Assembly: GCA_964634855.1 (NCBI GenBank)
Contig: CAZWKK010000002.1
Span: 1-28,559 of the forward strand
DNA from: an uncultured Anaerolinea sp.
Lineage (GTDB): Bacteria; Chloroflexota; Anaerolineae; Anaerolineales; Anaerolineaceae
Length of the DNA: 28,559 nucleotides
Direction of reading: 5' to 3'
In this document: piece by piece, positions 11,226 through 19,407 of the stretch
How the letters are laid out: every line of letters starts with the position of its first letter
Numbering within the stretch: position 1 is the first letter of the stretch
Made by a program: the position numbers and the translations under genes
The notes under the pieces: generated by a model
What the model saw: the letters and a program-made list of their open reading frames with translations, nothing else
Databases searched by the model: none
What the model was told of the DNA's origin: nothing

Positions 11226-12689
11226 TTAGTTATTATCGGGAAGCCAACAGCAGAGCACGAGCTCCTTGGCGGCTTTGACCTCGTCGAGGCGGCCAACTGG
11301 AGTGTCATGCGGGGCGTCTTTGAGCAATTGCGGCTCTGAATGCGCTTCATTGGCGATCTTGAGCAGGGCTTCGGCAAAGAGATCCAGTGTCTGCTTGCTC
11401 TCCGTCTCGGTCGGCTCAATCATGAGCGCTTCATGCACAATGAGTGGGAAGTAGTTCGTGGGCGGATGGAACTTGTAATCCATCAGCCGTTTGGCCACAT
11501 CCAGTGCGTGTACCTCGGGTGCATCCGCCCAACAGCCTTCCAGAACAAACTCGTGCATGCAAACACGTTGGTAGGGAAGCACGAAGGCGCCTTTGAGTTT
11601 GGAGAGAAGATAGTTGGCGTTGAGCACAGCGTATTCAGATATCTTGCGCAGGCCATCCGGCCCGTGCATGCGGATATAGGTGAAGGCGCGAACCATCATA
11701 CCGAACTGGCCGTAGAAAGATTTTACGCGGCCGATGGTATGTTTGGGTTGAATGAACCCGTACATGGGTGGAATTTCGTCTGTACCCTCTTCCGTGATGC
11801 CAACGATTGGGGTAGGCAGGAAATCAGCCAGGTGTTTGGCCACGCCTACAGGTCCGCTGCCGGGACCGCCGCCACCGTGCGGGGTAGAGAAGGTCTTGTG
11901 CAGGTTGAAGTGCATCACATCAATGCCCAGGTCGCCGGGACGGGCAATGCCAAGCAGCGCGTTTAGATTGGCGCCATCGCCATAGACCAGACCGCCACAG
12001 CCATGTACCAGCTTGATGACTTCCAGCACGTTCTCATCGAACAGGCCAAGGGTGTTGGGGTTGGTGAGCATTAACCCAGCAACTGTCTCATCGCAGAGGG
12101 TCTTTAACACAGTCAGATCCACATTACCGCGGGCATCTGAGGGCACGGGTACCACCTCGTAGCCGCTCATGGCAGAGCTGGCCGGGTTGGTGCCGTGCGC
12201 AGAATCGGGGATGAGGATGCGGGTACGTTTTTCATCGCCGCGTGAGCGATGGTAAGCGCGGATAACCATGACCCCAACCAATTCACCCTGAGCGCCGGCA
12301 GCCGGTTCCAGGCAGACAGAGGCAAATCCGCTGATCTCTTTGAGGAATTCCTGCAGGTTATACATCAGCGCCAGGTTGCCTTGCACGGTTTCCACTGGCT
12401 GCAGCGGATGCACCTGGGAGAAGCCTGGAATACGGGCGGTCTCTTCGTTGATCTTGGGGTTGTACTTCATGGTGCAGGAACCCAGGGGATAGAAACCACT
12501 ATCAATGCTGTAATTCAGGCTGGATAGATGGGTAAAATGACGAACCACATCCAGCTCAGAAAGTTCGGGTAAGGGGAGATCTGTACGGACTAAACCTTCT
12601 GGCAGGGCTGTTTCCGGGACATCAGGTTGGGGGAAGCGTACGCCCTGGCGTCCTTTGGAAGAAAGCTCATAAATGGTGAGTTCAGTCAT
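11226..12689 (-). CDS. gcvPB: Glycine dehydrogenase (decarboxylating) subunit 2
   Basis: GFYPLGSCTMKYNPK, AHGTNPASS, LTNPNTLGLF, PLP lysine motif HFNLHKTFSTPHGGGGPG, ALMIEPTETESK. Confidence 0.98.
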   Translation of the reverse strand: MTELTIYELSSKGRQGVRFPQPDVPETALPEGLVRTDLPLPELSELDVVRHFTHLSSLNYSIDSGFYPLGSCTMKYNPKINEETARIPGFSQVHPLQPVETVQGNLALMYNLQEFLKEISGFASVCLEPAAGAQGELVGVMVIRAYHRSRGDEKRTRILIPDSAHGTNPASSAMSGYEVVPVPSDARGNVDLTVLKTLCDETVAGLMLTNPNTLGLFDENVLEVIKLVHGCGGLVYGDGANLNALLGIARPGDLGIDVMHFNLHKTFSTPHGGGGPGSGPVGVAKHLADFLPTPIVGITEEGTDEIPPMYGFIQPKHTIGRVKSFYGQFGMMVRAFTYIRMHGPDGLRKISEYAVLNANYLLSKLKGAFVLPYQRVCMHEFVLEGCWADAPEVHALDVAKRLMDYKFHPPTNYFPLIVHEALMIEPTETESKQTLDLFAEALLKIANEAHSEPQLLKDAPHDTPVGRLDEVKAAKELVLCCWLPDNN

Positions 12690-14034
12690 GCTTCACCTCC
12701 GCAAGAGCTTCTACGAGCGCATCAATTTCTTCACGCCGATTCATTTCTGTCACAGCGATGAGCATGTGATTCTTGAGCGTGGGGAAGTCTTTGCTCAGAT
12801 CATAACCACCCAGGATACCTTCATCCAGGAGTACGTTGTTGATCTGGTTTACAGGGCGTGGGCACTTAACCACAAATTCATGGAAGAAGGGAGTGGTGCC
12901 GACTACCTCAAAACCTGGGAGTTTGGCGATCTCTGCTGCAGCGTAATGCGCTTTCTGATAGCAGAGAGTGGATACCTGTTTGAAGCCAGATTTTCCCAAT
13001 AAGCTGAGGTAGATGGTGGCAGCCAAAGCGATGAGACCCTGGTTTGTGCAGATGTTTGAGGTGGCTTTTTCTCGGCGGATGTGCTGCTCGCGCGCGGTGA
13101 GGGTAAGCACATAGCCTTTGCGGCCTTGTGCATCTACTGTCTCACCCACCAGGCGGCCAGACATTTTGCGCGCATAATCCTTACGGGTAGCGAAAAAGCC
13201 CAGATAAGGCCCACCAAAGGAGAGGGGAATGCCCAAAGGTTGGCCTTCGCCAACCACAACATCAGCGCCAAATTCGCCTGGGGTCTTGAGCAGGCCAAGG
13301 GCAGTGGGGTTGGTGATGACACCCAACAGCGCACCTTTTTCATGCGCTTTGGCAGCGAGTTCGCTCAGATCGTAGACACGACCAAAGAAATCGGGGTATT
13401 GAACCAATACCATCGCGGTGTCTTCGTCAATCTGCGGCAACAGGTCAGTGGGTGCAGCAAAAGGATCTTGCTTGCTGCTGCCAGAGACGATCTGCATGTT
13501 CTCATATCCGCAAAGGTAAGAGCAAAGGACTTCACGGTACTGTGGGTTGATCGCTTCAGAGAGCAAAATCTTGCCCCGTTTACCGCGGAAGTGATGATAA
13601 GCCAAGACGCCAGCTTCAGCAGTCGCCGTAGCGCCGTCGTAATGGCTTGCGTTGGCTACTTCCATGCCCGTGAGGTTGGCGATCAGCGATTGGAATTCAA
13701 AGATCGCCTGCAGGGTTCCCTGCGAGATCTCTGGCTGGTAAGGGGTGTATGCAGTATAGAATTCACCACGGCGTAACAAGCTATCTACGGCCGCAGGCGT
13801 GTAATGATGGTAAGCGCCCGCTCCCAAGAAGCACACCAGATCCTTGACGGACTCATTGGCTAATGCAAATTCTTGCAGCTCAGCCAGCGCTTCCATCTCT
13901 GTGATGCCTTCAGGAAGATCTAATTTGGGGAACCGAAACTTTTCTGGAACATCGGTAAAGAGGTCTTCAATGCGTTTGACCCCGATGCTTTTCAGCATCT
14001 CCTCCGTTTCAATTTCGGTATGGGGGATGAACAT
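12682..14034 (-). CDS. gcvPA: Glycine dehydrogenase (decarboxylating) subunit 1
   Basis: FLGAGAYHHY, EFYTAYTPYQPEISQGTLQAIFEFQ, NASHYDG, GQPLGIPLSFGGPYLG, REQHIRREKATSNICTNQ. 8-nt overlap with gcvPB. Confidence 0.98.
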   Translation of the reverse strand: MFIPHTEIETEEMLKSIGVKRIEDLFTDVPEKFRFPKLDLPEGITEMEALAELQEFALANESVKDLVCFLGAGAYHHYTPAAVDSLLRRGEFYTAYTPYQPEISQGTLQAIFEFQSLIANLTGMEVANASHYDGATATAEAGVLAYHHFRGKRGKILLSEAINPQYREVLCSYLCGYENMQIVSGSSKQDPFAAPTDLLPQIDEDTAMVLVQYPDFFGRVYDLSELAAKAHEKGALLGVITNPTALGLLKTPGEFGADVVVGEGQPLGIPLSFGGPYLGFFATRKDYARKMSGRLVGETVDAQGRKGYVLTLTAREQHIRREKATSNICTNQGLIALAATIYLSLLGKSGFKQVSTLCYQKAHYAAAEIAKLPGFEVVGTTPFFHEFVVKCPRPVNQINNVLLDEGILGGYDLSKDFPTLKNHMLIAVTEMNRREEIDALVEALAEVKHD

Positions 14035-14426
14035 TAGTGGCTCCGCTCTGCGCAGAACTTTTCGTATGCGGCGGCATCCATCAGCGTGTCCAGTTCAGCC
14101 GGGCTGGAAAGTTCAACTTTGAGCATCCAGGCAGCACCGAATGGATCGGAGTTAACGGTTTCTGGAGTGTTGGAGAGGGCATCATTCACGGCAACGACTT
14201 TACCGGATACAGGTGCATTCACATCAGAGGCAGCTTTGACGGATTCAACAGTCGCGATGGTTCCGCCCTTTTTCACAGAATCACCAACGCCAGCGCTGAT
14301 CTCAACGAAAACGACATCAGAGAGCTGATCTTGGGCGAAATCGGAGATACCAATTGTGGCGACATTCCCTTCAACAGAAACCCATTCATCCGTGTTAGCG
14401 TACTTGTAATTAGATTCAAATTTCAT
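14034..14426 (-). CDS. gcvH: Glycine cleavage system H protein
   Basis: IGISDFAQDQLSDVVFVE, lipoyl-Lys motif VESVKAASDV, NSDPFGAAWM. Start placed at 14426 (MKFES) behind GGAGG; TAATG overlap with gcvPA. Confidence 0.98.
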   Translation of the reverse strand: MKFESNYKYANTDEWVSVEGNVATIGISDFAQDQLSDVVFVEISAGVGDSVKKGGTIATVESVKAASDVNAPVSGKVVAVNDALSNTPETVNSDPFGAAWMLKVELSSPAELDTLMDAAAYEKFCAERSH

Positions 14427-14451
14427 TGTTTCCTCCAGAATAATTTTGATT

Positions 14452-14486
14452 AAAGAAAAAGGACGCAAAACAATTTTGCGTCCTCT
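14452..14486 (-). terminator. Attenuator terminator (expression platform of the glycine riboswitch)
   Basis: Minus strand GGACGCAAAA-TTG-TTTTGCGTCC followed by TTTTTCTTT, between the second aptamer and the gcvH RBS. Confidence 0.85.
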
Positions 14487-14650
14487 GTGATCGACCTGAG
14501 AGATTCACCAGTTACCTGGTTTGCCCCTTCGGTGAAATTACACTTTCCAGAGTTTGGAAAAAAACCGGGGTCCTTTTTGCCTGAGAGATTCACCAGTTTT
14601 GCTGGTTTGCCCCTTCGGCGTCTGAGCATTCAGATCTCTTCCTCGGTTTT
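14483..14650 (-). ncRNA. Tandem glycine riboswitch (two aptamers)
   Basis: Minus strand GGAAGAGA...CGCCGAAGGGGCAA...AATCTCTCAGGCAAAAAGGAC, linker, CTCTGGAAAG...CACCGAAGGGGCAA...AATCTCTCAGG...ACAGAG. Matches the known tandem glycine aptamer pattern and lies directly upstream of gcvH. Confidence 0.95.
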
Positions 14651-14670
14651 CTTTGTTCTTTTGTAGATTC

Positions 14671-14726: not shown

Positions 14727-16001
14727 CTACGCGACGATTTTCTTGTGAGACAGTCTTTGTTTGAGGGTGGGCCAAAGGAAGAGGAAGAAGCCGAGCAAGC
14801 GGAAGGCAGCAGAGATCATCAGACCTACGCCTAAGCCGTACGAGTCGCCAATTGTTGTACCGATGACAGGGGCAAACACTGAGGAAAGGTACTGGATGCT
14901 CTGTGCGAAAGACACGAAAATGGCCGAATATCCAACAGGTACCGTTCGCATCAACTCATCAAAGAATACCAGGTCCAGGCCAGCCTGGAAAATACCCGCC
15001 ATGCCAGCAAATGCGGTGATCTGCAAGGTTGAATGACTGAACGACATGGCCAACGGGTACAGTGCCACACCCAGAGACGTCCAGATGAGTACTTTGGAGG
15101 GGCCATGTTTTCTTGATTGACGGGTCCAGACAAAATAGCCCACCACCAGGACGGCGGTTTGCACTGTGTTGATGATGGAGATCCAGCCATCACTGGCATG
15201 CACCACTCTGACCAGGTAAAGCGGAATCAGCGGAGCAGCCAAAGCTGTACCGGTCAGGAAAATAAACCGTTTGATGATAAAAGATAGGTACGGTTTTTCA
15301 GAGAGGATCAGGTCTTTATACTCTTTTACCTGTTCTGTAAAAGCGCGTTTGCCATAAGATAGACCTTGAGGTGTAGAGAATGGAATTCTGATGTGACTTG
15401 AATAGGTATAACTGATGAGCCCACCCAGTGAAAGTACAATGAACATGATCTGGTAATTGAGGGGGAAGACAACCCTGTCCAACAATTGACCAATTGCAAG
15501 GACACAAATGGTGGTGGTGATGCCCAATACCGACCAGCGGCGTGTCATTAACTCAAAGCGGCCGGAAGGACCAGCCACAGCATTCATCACCACAGAGAAG
15601 GTGATGGCTACGACCGTTTGTGGAATAGTGGCCAAAGCCCAAATGGCGAGAATAGCAATTACCACTGCCCGGTCTGGCAAGAGGAAAGAGGCAAACCCCG
15701 TCAACGCGTAACAGGCGATCACCATCAATCTGGCGATGCTGAACCAACGAACGATGTTAGGTTGTCGTTGTAAAAACCGTCCGAGTGGGATTGAAAGGAT
15801 CAACCCGGTGATGGCCGGCATAGAGGAGAGCAGGCCTACCTGGAAACTGCTGGCGTTTAAATGGGTCAAGAAAACAGGTAAGAAAGGAGATGCGGCATTT
15901 GCCAAACCGACGCCGATTGCATCGATCTGCACATTTGAATAATTCTTTCTCTCTGTTTCGGATAAATTTGCAGGTAGACTAAAGTTTCTTAATAATTTCA
16001 C
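14727..16001 (-). CDS. MFS transporter
   Basis: 424 aa, roughly 12 hydrophobic segments in two halves, GRFLQRQP loop after TM2. GTG start with a weak RBS; extended -10 TGGTATAAT (minus strand) at 16031-16039. Substrate unknown. Confidence 0.88.
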   Translation of the reverse strand: MKLLRNFSLPANLSETERKNYSNVQIDAIGVGLANAASPFLPVFLTHLNASSFQVGLLSSMPAITGLILSIPLGRFLQRQPNIVRWFSIARLMVIACYALTGFASFLLPDRAVVIAILAIWALATIPQTVVAITFSVVMNAVAGPSGRFELMTRRWSVLGITTTICVLAIGQLLDRVVFPLNYQIMFIVLSLGGLISYTYSSHIRIPFSTPQGLSYGKRAFTEQVKEYKDLILSEKPYLSFIIKRFIFLTGTALAAPLIPLYLVRVVHASDGWISIINTVQTAVLVVGYFVWTRQSRKHGPSKVLIWTSLGVALYPLAMSFSHSTLQITAFAGMAGIFQAGLDLVFFDELMRTVPVGYSAIFVSFAQSIQYLSSVFAPVIGTTIGDSYGLGVGLMISAAFRLLGFFLFLWPTLKQRLSHKKIVA

Positions 16002-16048
16002 ATAAAGATTCTGGGTTCAATGATTTGATTATTATACCAAGGGTGTGT

Positions 16049-16675
16049 TTATGGATTAATCAACACATCTGTCACGAGCATGGAGTTACATCCAGAGTCT
16101 TTCCACATGCCCAGGTAGTTACCTTCTTTGGAGTAGGCTTTTAGCTCATAGATCTCCCAACCTTTGATGATGACATGATCACCAACTTTGATCTTGAGCA
16201 ACTTGGTTTGAATGTCCTGATTCATCGGCACTGTGTGCAGCAGGTTGATGGTTCCTGAAGGAGAGTTCTCTGTGTTACTGTTCCAGTAGAAGTGATGATC
16301 CTCAACATTGGTCGAGACAAGGCGGCGGTCTGAATAATCGCCTGTGGTGACCAGAATATCCGAGGCGAGGATGGGAAAAACCAATTCATGGTCGTTATTG
16401 TAGTGCCGTACCAGACCATCGAAAACGCGATCATGATCTGCTTCATATAAAAGCGAAAAGAAGCTACCATCCGGCAGGGCGATTGAATGAAACCCGTTGG
16501 TGACGATCATGGTATCAAAATCTTCAAGGGGAGCTACGCCCACTTCTGCGCGGAAGAGGTAGATACCAGCAAAGACCAGGATGGCAAATATGAGGACCAG
16601 AATAGGCGTCCAGATCAGCGAAAGATAGGTCCTTCGTTTGATCTCTGAATTACGCCTTGGATAGAGAAAGTTCAT
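16049..16675 (-). CDS. Hypothetical protein with one N-terminal transmembrane anchor
   Basis: Start placed at 16675 (MNFLYP), downstream of the promoter at 16710-16738. Basic N-terminus (RRNSEIKRR), hydrophobic LIWTPILVLIFAILVFAGIYLF, then a soluble beta-rich domain. Confidence 0.7.
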   Translation of the reverse strand: MNFLYPRRNSEIKRRTYLSLIWTPILVLIFAILVFAGIYLFRAEVGVAPLEDFDTMIVTNGFHSIALPDGSFFSLLYEADHDRVFDGLVRHYNNDHELVFPILASDILVTTGDYSDRRLVSTNVEDHHFYWNSNTENSPSGTINLLHTVPMNQDIQTKLLKIKVGDHVIIKGWEIYELKAYSKEGNYLGMWKDSGCNSMLVTDVLINP

Positions 16676-16709
16676 ACAATCGCCTACTGTAGAATCCCTG
16701 AATAATTCG

Positions 16710-16738
16710 AGTATAATAGCAAAAGTATTGACGTTCAA
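16710..16738 (-). promoter_or_regulatory. Sigma70-type promoter for the hypothetical membrane protein
   Basis: Minus strand TTGAAC (16738-16733), 17 bp spacer, TATACT (16715-16710). Confidence 0.6.
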
Positions 16739-16783
16739 GCGAAGGAGGTGTTAAGCGAGTTTTCAGTCTTAAGTGGAAAGCCA

Positions 16784-16911
16784 AGCGCATGGCCTAGATC
16801 ATATTTCTAGGTGACGAGGATGAGGGTTCTTCACCGCAAGGTGAGGCTAACCGGGAAGACCGGGAAAATCGACAGATCAGCGGAAGCCCTTCAGGTGGCA
16901 AACAGCCCCTG
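16784..16911 (+). ncRNA. glmS (GlcN6P-activated) ribozyme, structural variant; predicted cleavage between A16784 and G16785
   Basis: A/GCGC...GG, P1 CCTAGA/TCTAGG, TGACGAGG, P2 TGAGGGTT/AGCCCTTCA, ATCGA, TCAGCGG, P3 GGTGGC-AAACA-GCCCC, all in the canonical order upstream of glmS. There is a 39-nt insertion at 16829-16867. Confidence 0.88.
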
Positions 16912-17022
16912 CACTTTCCAACATTTTCAATCAAATCATTCACCTAAATCCTGCCCGGGAACCCTGGCAGGGACGCTCTGCCTGTATATACAGGAAGGGT
17001 GTATTTGAAACATGGAGGATAC

Positions 17023-18864
17023 ATGTGTGGAATTGTTGGTTACATTGGTGAGCAAGACGCTACTCCAATCATTTTAAAAGGCTTGAAACGGCTTGAATAC
17101 CGAGGTTATGATTCTGCAGGGATCGCCGTATTAACTAACGGACATATCGAAGTTCGTCGTGATGCCGGCAAATTGGGCAATTTGGAAGCACTGGTCGAAC
17201 AAAACCCGATCAAAGGACGGGTAGGGATTGGCCATACCCGTTGGGCTACCCATGGCGAACCGACCGCACGAAATGCACACCCACATATGGGGGCGACCGG
17301 CAAGGTTGTGGTGGTGCACAACGGAATTGTCGAGAATTTCATTGAGCTTAAAGAAGAATTGAGTCAGGACGGCGCTGTTTTCCAATCGGATACCGATACT
17401 GAGACCATTGTATTGTTGGTGGAAAAGTACATGAAAACTGGGCTTGGCCTGGAAGCTGCTGCCCGTAAAACACTGGCCCGCCTTAAGGGTGCTCATGGCG
17501 TAGTGCTCTTCTCTTCTCAGGAACCAGATAAGATCGTGGCAGCACGCATTGGCAATGCCGGCGGAGTTGTATTAGGCCTTGGCGAAGGAGAGAACTTCAT
17601 TGCCTCCGATATTCCGGCCATTATGGAACATACCCGCAAATTGATCTTTTTAGAATCACGCCAGATGGCTGTGGTGACCCGCCAGGGCATTACCCTTTCT
17701 ACCATTGAAGGAACGCCGATCGAGGCGAAGATCTCTACTGTAGCCTGGGACCCTGTGGCTGCAGAAAAAGGCAACTACCGCCACTTTATGCAAAAAGAGA
17801 TCCACGAGCAGGTCAGGGCTTTGAACGATACTCTGGCTGGTCGGGTGGATTTTGAAGACGGCAGCATTCGTTTGCCCCAATTAAAACTGGATGCTGAAAA
17901 TGCCAAACAATTCAATCGCATCGTCATTACTGCCTGCGGTACGGCATGGCACGCTGGTATGGTAGGACGAATCTTGTTGGAACGTATTGCCAGAATTCCG
18001 ACCAGCGTGGAAATTGCCTCTGAATTCCGCTATGCTGATCCGCTGGTGGATGAGCACACCATTGCCATGGCCATCAGCCAGTCGGGTGAAACAGCCGATA
18101 CCCTGGCAGCCATGGATGAAGCCCGCAAGCATGGGGCAAAACTTTGGTCCATCGTCAATGCCATTGGTTCTCAGGCCATGCGCATTGCGGATGGGTATAT
18201 TTCCATGCAGACCGGGCCGGAGATCGGCGTGGCCTCTACCAAGGCCTTTACAGCCCCTCTGGTGGACCAATACATGTTAGCCATCCTTTTGGGTGAGCTT
18301 CGCGGAACGGTCAGCTTGGAAAAACGCAAAGAACTGGTCAACGACCTGCGCCTGGTGCCAGAATTGGTGGGTCAATGCCTGGACCGTGAAGGGGAGGTAG
18401 AGAAGATCGCTGCGGTATTGAAAGATACCAAAGATATGCTCTACCTGGGTCGCGGCATTAATATGCCCATCGCCTATGAAGGCGCTCTCAAACTTAAAGA
18501 GATCTCTTATATTCATGCAGAAGCCTACCCGGCTGGTGAAATGAAACATGGGCCGATCGCTCTGGTGGATAAAGATATGCCAGTCTTGGCCATTGCCACT
18601 GAGGATATGTGGCATGAGAAGATGATCAGCCAGATCGAGCAGGCCAAAGCACGGGGTGGCGTGGTGGTTGCGGTTGCCACTGAAGGCGACGAACGTATTG
18701 CCAGACTGGTGGACCATGTTTTGTGGGTACCCAAGACCCCCTGGCTGCTCAGCCCGGTAGTCAATGTGATCCCGCTGCAGATCCTAGCCTATCACATTGC
18801 CTGTCAACGTGGGTTGGATGTTGACCAGCCGCGAAATTTGGCAAAATCAGTAACGGTCGAATAA
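17023..18864 (+). CDS. glmS: Glutamine--fructose-6-phosphate transaminase (isomerizing)
   Basis: Start placed at 17023 (MCGIVG, catalytic Cys) behind GGAGG. RGYDSAG, GHTRWATHG, SQSGETADT, GVASTKAF, MKHGP, C-terminal RNLAKSVTVE. Confidence 0.99.
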   Translation: MCGIVGYIGEQDATPIILKGLKRLEYRGYDSAGIAVLTNGHIEVRRDAGKLGNLEALVEQNPIKGRVGIGHTRWATHGEPTARNAHPHMGATGKVVVVHNGIVENFIELKEELSQDGAVFQSDTDTETIVLLVEKYMKTGLGLEAAARKTLARLKGAHGVVLFSSQEPDKIVAARIGNAGGVVLGLGEGENFIASDIPAIMEHTRKLIFLESRQMAVVTRQGITLSTIEGTPIEAKISTVAWDPVAAEKGNYRHFMQKEIHEQVRALNDTLAGRVDFEDGSIRLPQLKLDAENAKQFNRIVITACGTAWHAGMVGRILLERIARIPTSVEIASEFRYADPLVDEHTIAMAISQSGETADTLAAMDEARKHGAKLWSIVNAIGSQAMRIADGYISMQTGPEIGVASTKAFTAPLVDQYMLAILLGELRGTVSLEKRKELVNDLRLVPELVGQCLDREGEVEKIAAVLKDTKDMLYLGRGINMPIAYEGALKLKEISYIHAEAYPAGEMKHGPIALVDKDMPVLAIATEDMWHEKMISQIEQAKARGGVVVAVATEGDERIARLVDHVLWVPKTPWLLSPVVNVIPLQILAYHIACQRGLDVDQPRNLAKSVTVE

Positions 18865-18883
18865 GGATCTACGCATAAATACC

Positions 18884-18917
18884 AAAGAGCTGAGAGGAAA
18901 ACCTCACAGCTCTTTTT
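18884..18917 (+). terminator. glmS terminator, overlapping the last codons of the convergent regulator gene
   Basis: AAAGAGCTG-A-GAGG-AAAA-CCTC-A-CAGCTCTTT followed by TT. The regulator's stop codon (18904-18906) lies inside the stem. Confidence 0.75.
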
Positions 18918-19407
18918 GGATTTTGGCAATGATGTCTTTTGCCAGGTTGGCATCCAGGAAATCAGTTTCGGTGAGGGAGATCAACGGACCATCTGGACCA
19001 GCGATCCATTTAGCCTCAATTCCTTTGGTGTGTAAAAAGGCTACTGCCTGATTCAATTTTGCGGTGGGGTGACCAGTTGGAGCGAAATCTGCGAGGATAG
19101 AATCAGCAATTTGGACAGTGAGTTCTTCTTCTGAGAGGCCGAGAGAGTGAAGCAAATGGGTCTGGGATTGGACAAGGGTCTGCACCCAGGTTCGATTCAA
19201 AGGGCGGATAGCCTGATAAGCATGGGCTGGCCGTCCCACCTGATTTGTAGATGTCAGTGTTTTGACCACACGCCCTTCGCTGATCAACTCGTTCAGGTGA
19301 TGGCGGATATCTGCGCGGGTGAGATGAAGCATGCGGCTCAATTGGGGGATGGTGAGGGGGCCTTTTTGAATGAGTGTTTCAAAGATCAATTCAGCGGGTT
19401 TTGACAT
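18904..19407 (-). CDS. Winged-HTH transcriptional regulator (ArsR/SufR-like N-terminus)
   Basis: LTIPQLSRMLHLTRADIRHHLNELISEGRV...VGRPAHAY matches the HTH plus GRPxxxY wing of SufR-like proteins. Start placed at 19407 (MSKPAE); the ORF track extends to a TTG at 19428. Confidence 0.8.
   Translation of the reverse strand: MSKPAELIFETLIQKGPLTIPQLSRMLHLTRADIRHHLNELISEGRVVKTLTSTNQVGRPAHAYQAIRPLNRTWVQTLVQSQTHLLHSLGLSEEELTVQIADSILADFAPTGHPTAKLNQAVAFLHTKGIEAKWIAGPDGPLISLTETDFLDANLAKDIIAKIQKEL

Follow-up and report, generated by a model that had tools for sequence, protein, structure and literature searches.

A candidate glmS ribozyme with two additional conserved hairpins in its core, an architecture standard in the class Anaerolineae

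The window analysed in this study is a 28,559-nucleotide stretch of DNA from an uncultured Anaerolinea sp. A 285-nt gap lies upstream of the open reading frame (ORF) at 17023-18864, and it holds a leader of the glmS type. This leader spans 16784-17019, with about 15 nt between the end of the ribozyme and the first base of glmS. The same 5' UTR position ahead of glmS was found in 104 relatives. The gene is as follows.

17023-18864, + strand: glmS coding sequence (MCGIVGY..., 613 aa), with Pfam GATase_6/7 and two SIS domains, best E = 5.9e-48

The whole window was searched with Rfam at the gathering threshold, which gave one match, a glycine riboswitch, and none for the glmS RNA. The gathering cut-off of RF00234 is 37 bits, and the glmS leader of the window falls below it. 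With an E-value threshold, RF00234 aligned end to end with positions 16773-17008 (27.0 bits, E = 1.4e-4), and the alignment contained a 48-nt insertion opposite 10 model positions. A sequence-only reading of the window had named the element a glmS ribozyme, and this identity is supported by the end-to-end alignment, by the glmS gene downstream and by the mapping of the core described below. A scan of the leader for promoters and terminators showed no + strand promoter consensus and no terminator. The DNA runs containing the window were sludge and wastewater metagenomes. Transcripts were checked in four runs over 16000-19000, namely three RNA libraries and one run labelled RNA-Seq that is probably DNA. 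The RNA-library contigs cover 16993-18762, corresponding to the glmS coding sequence, plus the ribozyme of one relative, and they are silent on cleavage because contigs carry no molecule ends.

Other elements of the window were also recorded. The glycine riboswitch is an ordinary single aptamer (RF00504, 62.6 bits) at 14558-14653 on the - strand, upstream of gcvH (14034-14468) and gcvP subunit 1 (12682-14034). A 65-aa ORF at 16811-17008 (+ strand), wholly inside this leader, is almost certainly a spurious one. A 229-aa ORF at 16049-16738 (- strand), divergent from the glmS leader, had no Pfam match.

The catalytic core of the window RNA was assigned as follows.

16784-16785, + strand: predicted self-cleavage site between A(-1) and G1 of AGCGCA, by homology to RF00234 and the numbering of PMC7125110
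16786-16791, + strand: P2.2 5' strand (C2 G3 C4 A5 U6 G7), partner 16878-16882
16792-16812, + strand: P1 hairpin, 7 bp, loop UCAUAUU, basal G.U pair, by covariation
16813-16819, + strand: J1/2 GACGAGG, invariant in all aligned sequences
16822-16828, + strand: P2 5' strand GAGGG (16822-16826), then junction UU, by P2 covariation
16869-16871, + strand: P2.1 3' strand UCG, invariant; part of the glucosamine-6-phosphate (GlcN6P) pocket in canonical ribozymes (PMC7125110)
16872-16877, + strand: P2.1-P2.2 pseudoknot loop, A + CAGA + U, of canonical length and matching AUCGA-NNNN-UC one-to-one
16878-16886, + strand: P2.2 3' strand CAGCG (16878-16882), then GAAG; UCAGCGGA invariant
16887-16891, + strand: P2 3' strand CCCUU, covarying with 16822-16826
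16892-16911, + strand: P3 hairpin, 7 bp, U16896 bulged, loop AAACA, by minimum free energy (MFE) fold and covariation

In the core of Thermoanaerobacter tengcongensis, P2.2 runs from C2-G56 to C5-G53 and continues, past a bulged A6, with G7-C52; P2.1 is formed by residues 28-30 with 43-45, and residues 47-50 make up the pseudoknot loop (PMC7125110). The window RNA mapped one-to-one onto this core, with the insert as the exception. The remaining differences are A5/U6 with A53 (not C5/A6 with G53) and the G.U pair at the base of P1. In P2.2 of the window, A5 is probably bulged and U6-A53 stands in place of the canonical C5-G53. The 5' strand of P2.1 is C16815-G16816-A16817, and AUCGA follows the insert directly at 16868-16872. 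The 3' part of the core (16868-16886) reads AUCGA-CAGA-UCAGCGGAAG.

Conservation was examined in a MAFFT alignment of 46 relatives (A1). AGCG at the predicted cleavage site was invariant (46/46), as were the P2.2 pairs C2-G, G3-C, C4-G and G7-C, and U6-A was present in 42 of the 46. The canonical C5-G53 position is A/A here, and the U6-A alternative itself was without covariation in these relatives. The GACGAGG and AUCGA blocks of P2.1 were both invariant and 100% paired, and UCAGCGG was invariant in the aligned relatives. P1 showed two-sided changes in 6/7 pairs with 96-97% pairing, and P2 covaried at 3/5 pairs with 99% pairing in both the 46-sequence alignment and a 97-sequence alignment. 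The junction UU after the P2 5' strand occurred in 94/97 sequences. All six pairs scored in P3 covaried (6/6), with 84% pairing in the model-fitted alignment. The placement of P3 by Rfam itself, with a 41-nt loop, was rejected; the short hairpin at 16892-16911, which folds in the MFE structure and covaries, was preferred. Every catalytic-core block is invariant in the 46 relatives. The proposal that the motifs flanking the insert are intact was borne out.

These data bear on whether the RNA still cleaves itself. Ribozyme activity could have been lost, so that the RNA would now only mask the ribosome-binding site, either constitutively or in response to GlcN6P. The Rfam score below the cut-off, the reduced peripheral domain, the loss of the C5-G53 pair and the paired Shine-Dalgarno (SD) sequence would all fit such a loss. 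We consider it extremely improbable, as no variation was seen in the cleavage dinucleotide, in the triple-forming G and A of GACGAGG, or in P2.1 and P2.2. A mutational study found a shifted P2.2 bulge, A6U and A8G to be active or rescuing states (PMC7125110). A6U and A8G, neutral or rescuing there, are both present in the window RNA, and a 66-nt core stripped of its periphery retains catalytic activity (PMC7125110).

Between the P2 5' strand and P2.1, the following elements were found.

16829-16846, + strand: inserted hairpin A, CUUCACC-GCAA-GGUGAGG, 7 bp (one G.U) with a GNRA loop, by covariation
16847-16850, + strand: linker CUAA between hairpins A and B (consensus YUAA), conserved
16851-16863, + strand: inserted hairpin B, CCGG-GAAGA-CCGG, 4 bp, the short form of a variable-length stem, by covariation
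16864-16868, + strand: conserved GAAAA junction into P2.1

From the core mapping, the insert sits inside the double pseudoknot, in the single-stranded segment leading from the 5' side of P2 to the 3' side of P2.1. GAGGGUU and AUCGA had been described as adjacent or nearly so in ordinary ribozymes, and this holds in the Rfam consensus, gGaGguUuAu-(CGA..), and in insert-free ribozymes of Chloroflexota, which read GAGGUUUAUCGA. The insert (16829-16867) folded with an MFE of -17.2 kcal/mol, and this fold made up 80% of the ensemble. Compared with dinucleotide shuffles, z was -3.64, and 1 of 200 shuffles folded as well. In the MAFFT alignment of 46, all seven pairs of hairpin A changed on both sides (7/7, 96.3% paired), as did all four of hairpin B (4/4, 97.8% paired). 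The slid-partner control for the whole structure in the 46 relatives gave 29-46% pairing. A covariance model, R1, was built from the A1 alignment with the insert included, and 100 matches aligned to R1 gave 97 distinct sequences. In this alignment every pair of both hairpins again covaried, and hairpin A was 98.3% and hairpin B 97.8% paired, figures that lean towards the structure because the alignment is fitted to the covariance model. Folding of single sequences gave two top-level hairpins in 109/112 glmS-type inserts, with one hairpin in the other three, and in 33/33 inserts of a glnA-associated type. The MFE fold, the z-score and the covariation together indicate that these 39 nt form two hairpins as had been claimed, and of these results the covariation speaks most strongly against a chance fold.

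The two hairpins differed in what is conserved. Among the 97 sequences, hairpin A had a total length of 18 nt in 77, and its loop was GCGA in 41, GCAA in 18, GCAG in 11 and GCGC in 6. The loop is therefore of the GNRA type in about 60% of sequences, with GCRR as the overall form. Hairpin B ranged from 13 to 93 nt in total length (median 20), and its loop was not conserved. The linker was UUAA in 41, CUAA in 40 and CCAA in 7 of the 97. In the GAAAA junction the G was nearly invariant and the AAAA invariant in the 46-sequence alignment; the loci from L051 onwards were fetched by a pattern containing AAAATCGA, and for GAAAA only the loci found with RF00234 are independent. At two loci, L003 (G036) and L075, a single hairpin occupies the insertion site (6 bp, then UAAAAUCGA). 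These two may be intermediate or reduced forms.

The distribution of the insert was investigated with Rfam and with the custom model, as the sequence-only reading had proposed. RF00234 matched 39/41 related genomes, and the match was above the cut-off in just 14; Deinococcus radiodurans was matched as a named control. At the loci of these relatives, the same two hairpins lie between GAGGGUU and GAAAAUCGA ahead of glmS, with clearly different stem sequences. R1 scored the window at 141 bits versus 27 bits for RF00234. R1 matches were obtained in 96/151 sampled genomes of the class Anaerolineae, representing 70/103 genera. A pattern scan with a variant-specific motif, using one genome per species, gave at least 119 loci. 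Among the matches listed (at least 119), nearly all were labelled Anaerolineae, Anaerolineales, Caldilineaceae, Ardenticatenaceae, Aggregatilineales, Anaerolinea, Bellilinea, Leptolinea or Levilinea, and 102 of the matches listed parse as complete cores.

Across Chloroflexota, R1 and RF00234 behaved reciprocally. Families f1, f15, f22, f30, f31 and f46 gave long matches with high R1 and low Rfam scores, and the ribozymes of families f25, f33, f40, f43, f23 and f59 were short and insert-free and reached 54-88 bits with Rfam. The double insert was also present in a metagenome-assembled genome (MAG) labelled Roseiflexaceae (L085). These results demonstrate that the double insert is the standard glmS ribozyme architecture in the class Anaerolineae and in some other Chloroflexota families. 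The proposed further architectural variant thus stands as a real insertion at a core junction, but it is not a one-off of this genome. Since ribozymes elsewhere in the phylum lack the insert and have a complete P4/P4.1, the insert is a derived trait of part of the phylum. Some double-insert members lie above the Rfam cut-off (L001, 60.5 bits; L002, 54.9 bits; G167, 63.8 bits), so such sequences would pass the threshold wherever these genomes were scanned. Part of the finding may already be in published alignments.

Several unusual loci were met in these searches. At L181:1620-1700 (G161, another Chloroflexota family), a glmS ribozyme is without an insert where P2 meets P2.1; about 50 additional nt lie instead between AUCGA and UCAGCGG, in the P2.1-P2.2 pseudoknot loop, which is a different core expansion. 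A double-insert leader at L203:426-620 (G086, family f46) has AACGAGG and AAGCGA replacing GACGAGG and AAUCGA; G takes the place of U in the UCG strand of P2.1, the leader has a very long hairpin B, and the score with Rfam is only about 30 bits. L129 (PLEM01000325.1), from a MAG labelled Bryobacterales (Acidobacteriota), carries a complete double-insert ribozyme ahead of glmS, and mis-binning or horizontal transfer is possible there. In the window's own genome, a third weak RF00234 match (C64, 15 bits, E = 0.34) was set aside because it had no R1 match.

The second RF00234 match in the genome lies outside the window, at G000:C205:1692-1906 (L031:1692-1906, + strand), and scored 29.3 bits with RF00234 and 101.5 bits with R1. 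This paralogue is upstream of the glutamine synthetase gene glnA (L031:2007-3341; Pfam Gln-synt_N and Gln-synt_C). It shares with the window RNA the two-hairpin insert, the junction letters and the 3' strands of P2.1 and P2.2. It differs in its 5' strand, which reads AGCGGCUG, in a P4/P4.1 that is kept with a GNRA loop, and in a terminator-like hairpin at its end, before the glutamine synthetase gene. Over all fetched loci, AGCGCA was paired with glmS in 104 cases and AGCGGC with glnA in 26. The glnA-type arrangement was found in about 20 genomes of the genus and also in other families.

The conservation and variability described so far allow a further alternative to be weighed. The insert could be a tolerated expansion segment without a function of its own, persisting in the lineage at a junction that accepts extra RNA. 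Hairpin B varies from the shortest to the longest form given above, L003 and L075 make do with one hairpin, and L181 carries its insert at a different core site. Core single-nucleotide insertions were better tolerated than deletions or substitutions (PMC7125110). We also compared the loop type of hairpin A (GCGA, GCAA, GCAG or GCGC) with every P1, P2 and P3 pair and found no association; with no covariation between this loop and P1, P2 or P3, no tertiary partner was found, and the lack of a covarying receptor also fits a passive segment. Against this, 77/97 sequences keep the 7 bp and 4 nt of hairpin A, the conservation of UU, YUAA and GAAAA extends over the class and to the glnA paralogue, and the arrangement is kept in 70/103 sampled genera. 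We therefore regard a functionless expansion as unlikely.

The 3' part of the leader was examined next to the core. Its features were as follows.

16914-16930, + strand: pyrimidine tract CUUUCC and the following bases, the anti-SD strand, conserved directly after P3
16945-16974, + strand: reduced P4.1-like hairpin (CCUGCC..GGCAGG; 16950-16971) with flanks UAAAU and GAC, by likeness to the Rfam consensus judged by eye
17005-17019, + strand: strand with the SD sequence GGAGGA (17014-17019), partner 16917-16930, by MFE folds

The canonical peripheral set, consisting of P3, the P3.1 pseudoknot, P4 with the internal-loop stack IL4, and P4.1 with a GNRA loop, is incomplete in the window, and P3 is present. 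The P4.1-like hairpin at 16945-16974 is without a GNRA loop and without the 3' AAAG, compared with UAAAUC-hairpin-GGAC(AAAG) as the Rfam canonical form. The P4.1 signature of GNRA plus ACAR was found in 0/21 leaders of the window's genus, in 39/86 other Anaerolineae glmS leaders and in 14/17 glnA-type leaders of the same genus. In the window's genus just 98-138 nt separate the core from the start codon. Canonical ribozymes support P2.1 with the IL4 purine stack, and the IL4-P2.1 interface is held by the P3.1 pseudoknot and by docking of the P4.1 GNRA tetraloop on P1 (PMC11602151). Because the 66-nt core is active (PMC7125110), the peripheral domain is not a defining requirement for catalysis.

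The pyrimidine tract after P3 is CUUUCC in the window and CUUUCCCUCC in other families. Complementarity between this tract and the SD sequence recurs in most Anaerolineae relatives and is sometimes lengthened by matching flanks. A duplex control with shuffled SD sequences is a poor one because base composition alone pairs, and it was replaced by an anchored pair-count test. In this test, the first flanking anti-SD/SD pair was paired in 0.59 of sequences versus 0.45 +/- 0.04 with permuted partners. Covariation was modest, at 1-2 flanking pairs, and the pairing rests mainly on conserved complementarity. These results suggest that the post-P3 tract may occlude the SD sequence, and that the ribosome-binding site may belong to the peripheral fold of the ribozyme. 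If the post-P3 strand pairs with the glmS ribosome-binding site in this way, translation initiation is probably tied to the fold of the RNA.

The sequence-only reading had suggested that the insert could provide a second regulatory input. It would then be bound by a protein or a small molecule, or form one side of a switch between alternative pairings. The conserved junction nucleotides and the rigidly conserved hairpin A would suit such an input, and with a predicted SD-sequestering helix in the leader, regulation may be multi-layered. However, the loop of hairpin B is not conserved, and the same insert occurs in two paralogues with different downstream genes and expression platforms. The stems of the insert covary freely, which rules out conserved alternative pairings and counts against such an input. 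With hairpin B free to vary in length and loop and the stem of hairpin A free to covary, the suggestion found no support, and we judge it very unlikely.

We propose that the leader is a GlcN6P-type glmS ribozyme whose core carries a lineage-specific structural insert that aids folding of the core. From sequence, covariation, taxonomic distribution and gene context, we give this reading a probability of roughly 0.75. By homology, GlcN6P would bind in a pocket formed by P2.1 and P2.2, and its binding would promote cleavage between A16784 and G16785. The cleaved glmS message would then be destabilised, giving negative feedback. The two hairpins are predicted to project from the double-pseudoknot core as lineage-specific structural elements that help it fold. 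Hairpin A, with its fixed 7 bp and its GCRR/GNRA-type loop, and the junction adenines of YUAA and GAAAA probably make tertiary contacts, and hairpin B would serve as a length-tolerant stem. The structural reading is based on the geometry of hairpin A, its GNRA-type loop, the A-rich junctions beside P2.1 and the length tolerance of hairpin B, and also on the retention of the module in a paralogue with a different expression platform. In the window's genus the domain that supports P2.1 in canonical ribozymes is reduced, which creates a need that the insert could meet. New tertiary contacts made by the insert, as had been suggested, are plausible on these grounds.

A more specific version of the structural reading can be considered. 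Hairpin A and the adenines of UAA and GAAAA could be a built-in substitute for the canonical interface of periphery and core, made up of the IL4 purine stack and the L4-P1 tetraloop contact, an idea that we hold only tentatively and consider doubtful. If true, it would explain the loss of P3.1/P4/P4.1 in the genus and the redirection of the freed 3' strand to cover the ribosome-binding site. Such a ribozyme would be compact and would act in two ways, through cleavage and through translational occlusion.

The finding is one of architecture and distribution, not of a new mechanism. A well-known ribozyme is seen here in a genuine and conserved variant of its architecture, useful chiefly for annotation and for the question of how the periphery supports the core. 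In sludge and sediment, a large and abundant bacterial class has a glmS core enlarged by two covarying helices. The Rfam cut-off misses much of this diversity, since 14/41 relatives pass it, and the insert-containing model R1 offers an improved search model for annotation. The variant also represents a natural experiment on the different ways in which a periphery can support a marginally stable double pseudoknot.

Among ribozymes that depend on a cofactor, the glmS ribozyme is the textbook example, and it is an antibacterial drug target. Its consensus is usually described as strikingly uniform, and strict conservation has been ascribed to P3.1/P4/P4.1. In the library searched, no paper linked glmS ribozymes with Anaerolinea, Chloroflexi or glnA. 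Variants with additional stems in the catalytic core have reportedly been described in Deinococcus-Thermus by McCown, Roth and Breaker (RNA 2011). Those variants reportedly resemble the present RNA in being natural, in having extra core stems and in showing altered substructures that support the core, and they belong to a different phylum.

The junctions of the insert resemble a known motif. [quoted passage not shown] The flanks of stem B, 5'-UAA and 3'-GAA, are conserved and fit the ccUAAg/uGAagg signature (PMC2615604). This is a resemblance only, since the second flanking helix is missing here and the site is a multi-helix junction, not an internal loop.

The canonical glmS ribozyme (RF00234; Bacillus subtilis, B. 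anthracis and T. tengcongensis) shares with the window RNA the A/GCGC cleavage context, P1, GACGAGG, P2, the AUCGA of P2.1, a 4-nt pseudoknot loop, the (U)CNGCGG of P2.2, P3 and a position in the glmS 5' UTR. In contrast, the window RNA has 39 extra nt forming two hairpins, a reduced P3.1/P4/IL4/P4.1 and an anti-SD tract after P3; A5/U6...A53 replaces C5-G53, and a G.U pair lies at the base of P1. Many insert-free Chloroflexota ribozymes (e.g. L170-L179 and L183-L196) have AGCGCA...UCAGCGG and a basal G.U pair in P1, as in the window. UU(U)AUCGA or GUUCGG comes immediately after P2 in these ribozymes, and their P4/P4.1 is full, with a GNRA loop and ACAAA. With Rfam, the window RNA scored 27 bits versus 70-87 bits for the insert-free ribozymes of the same phylum.
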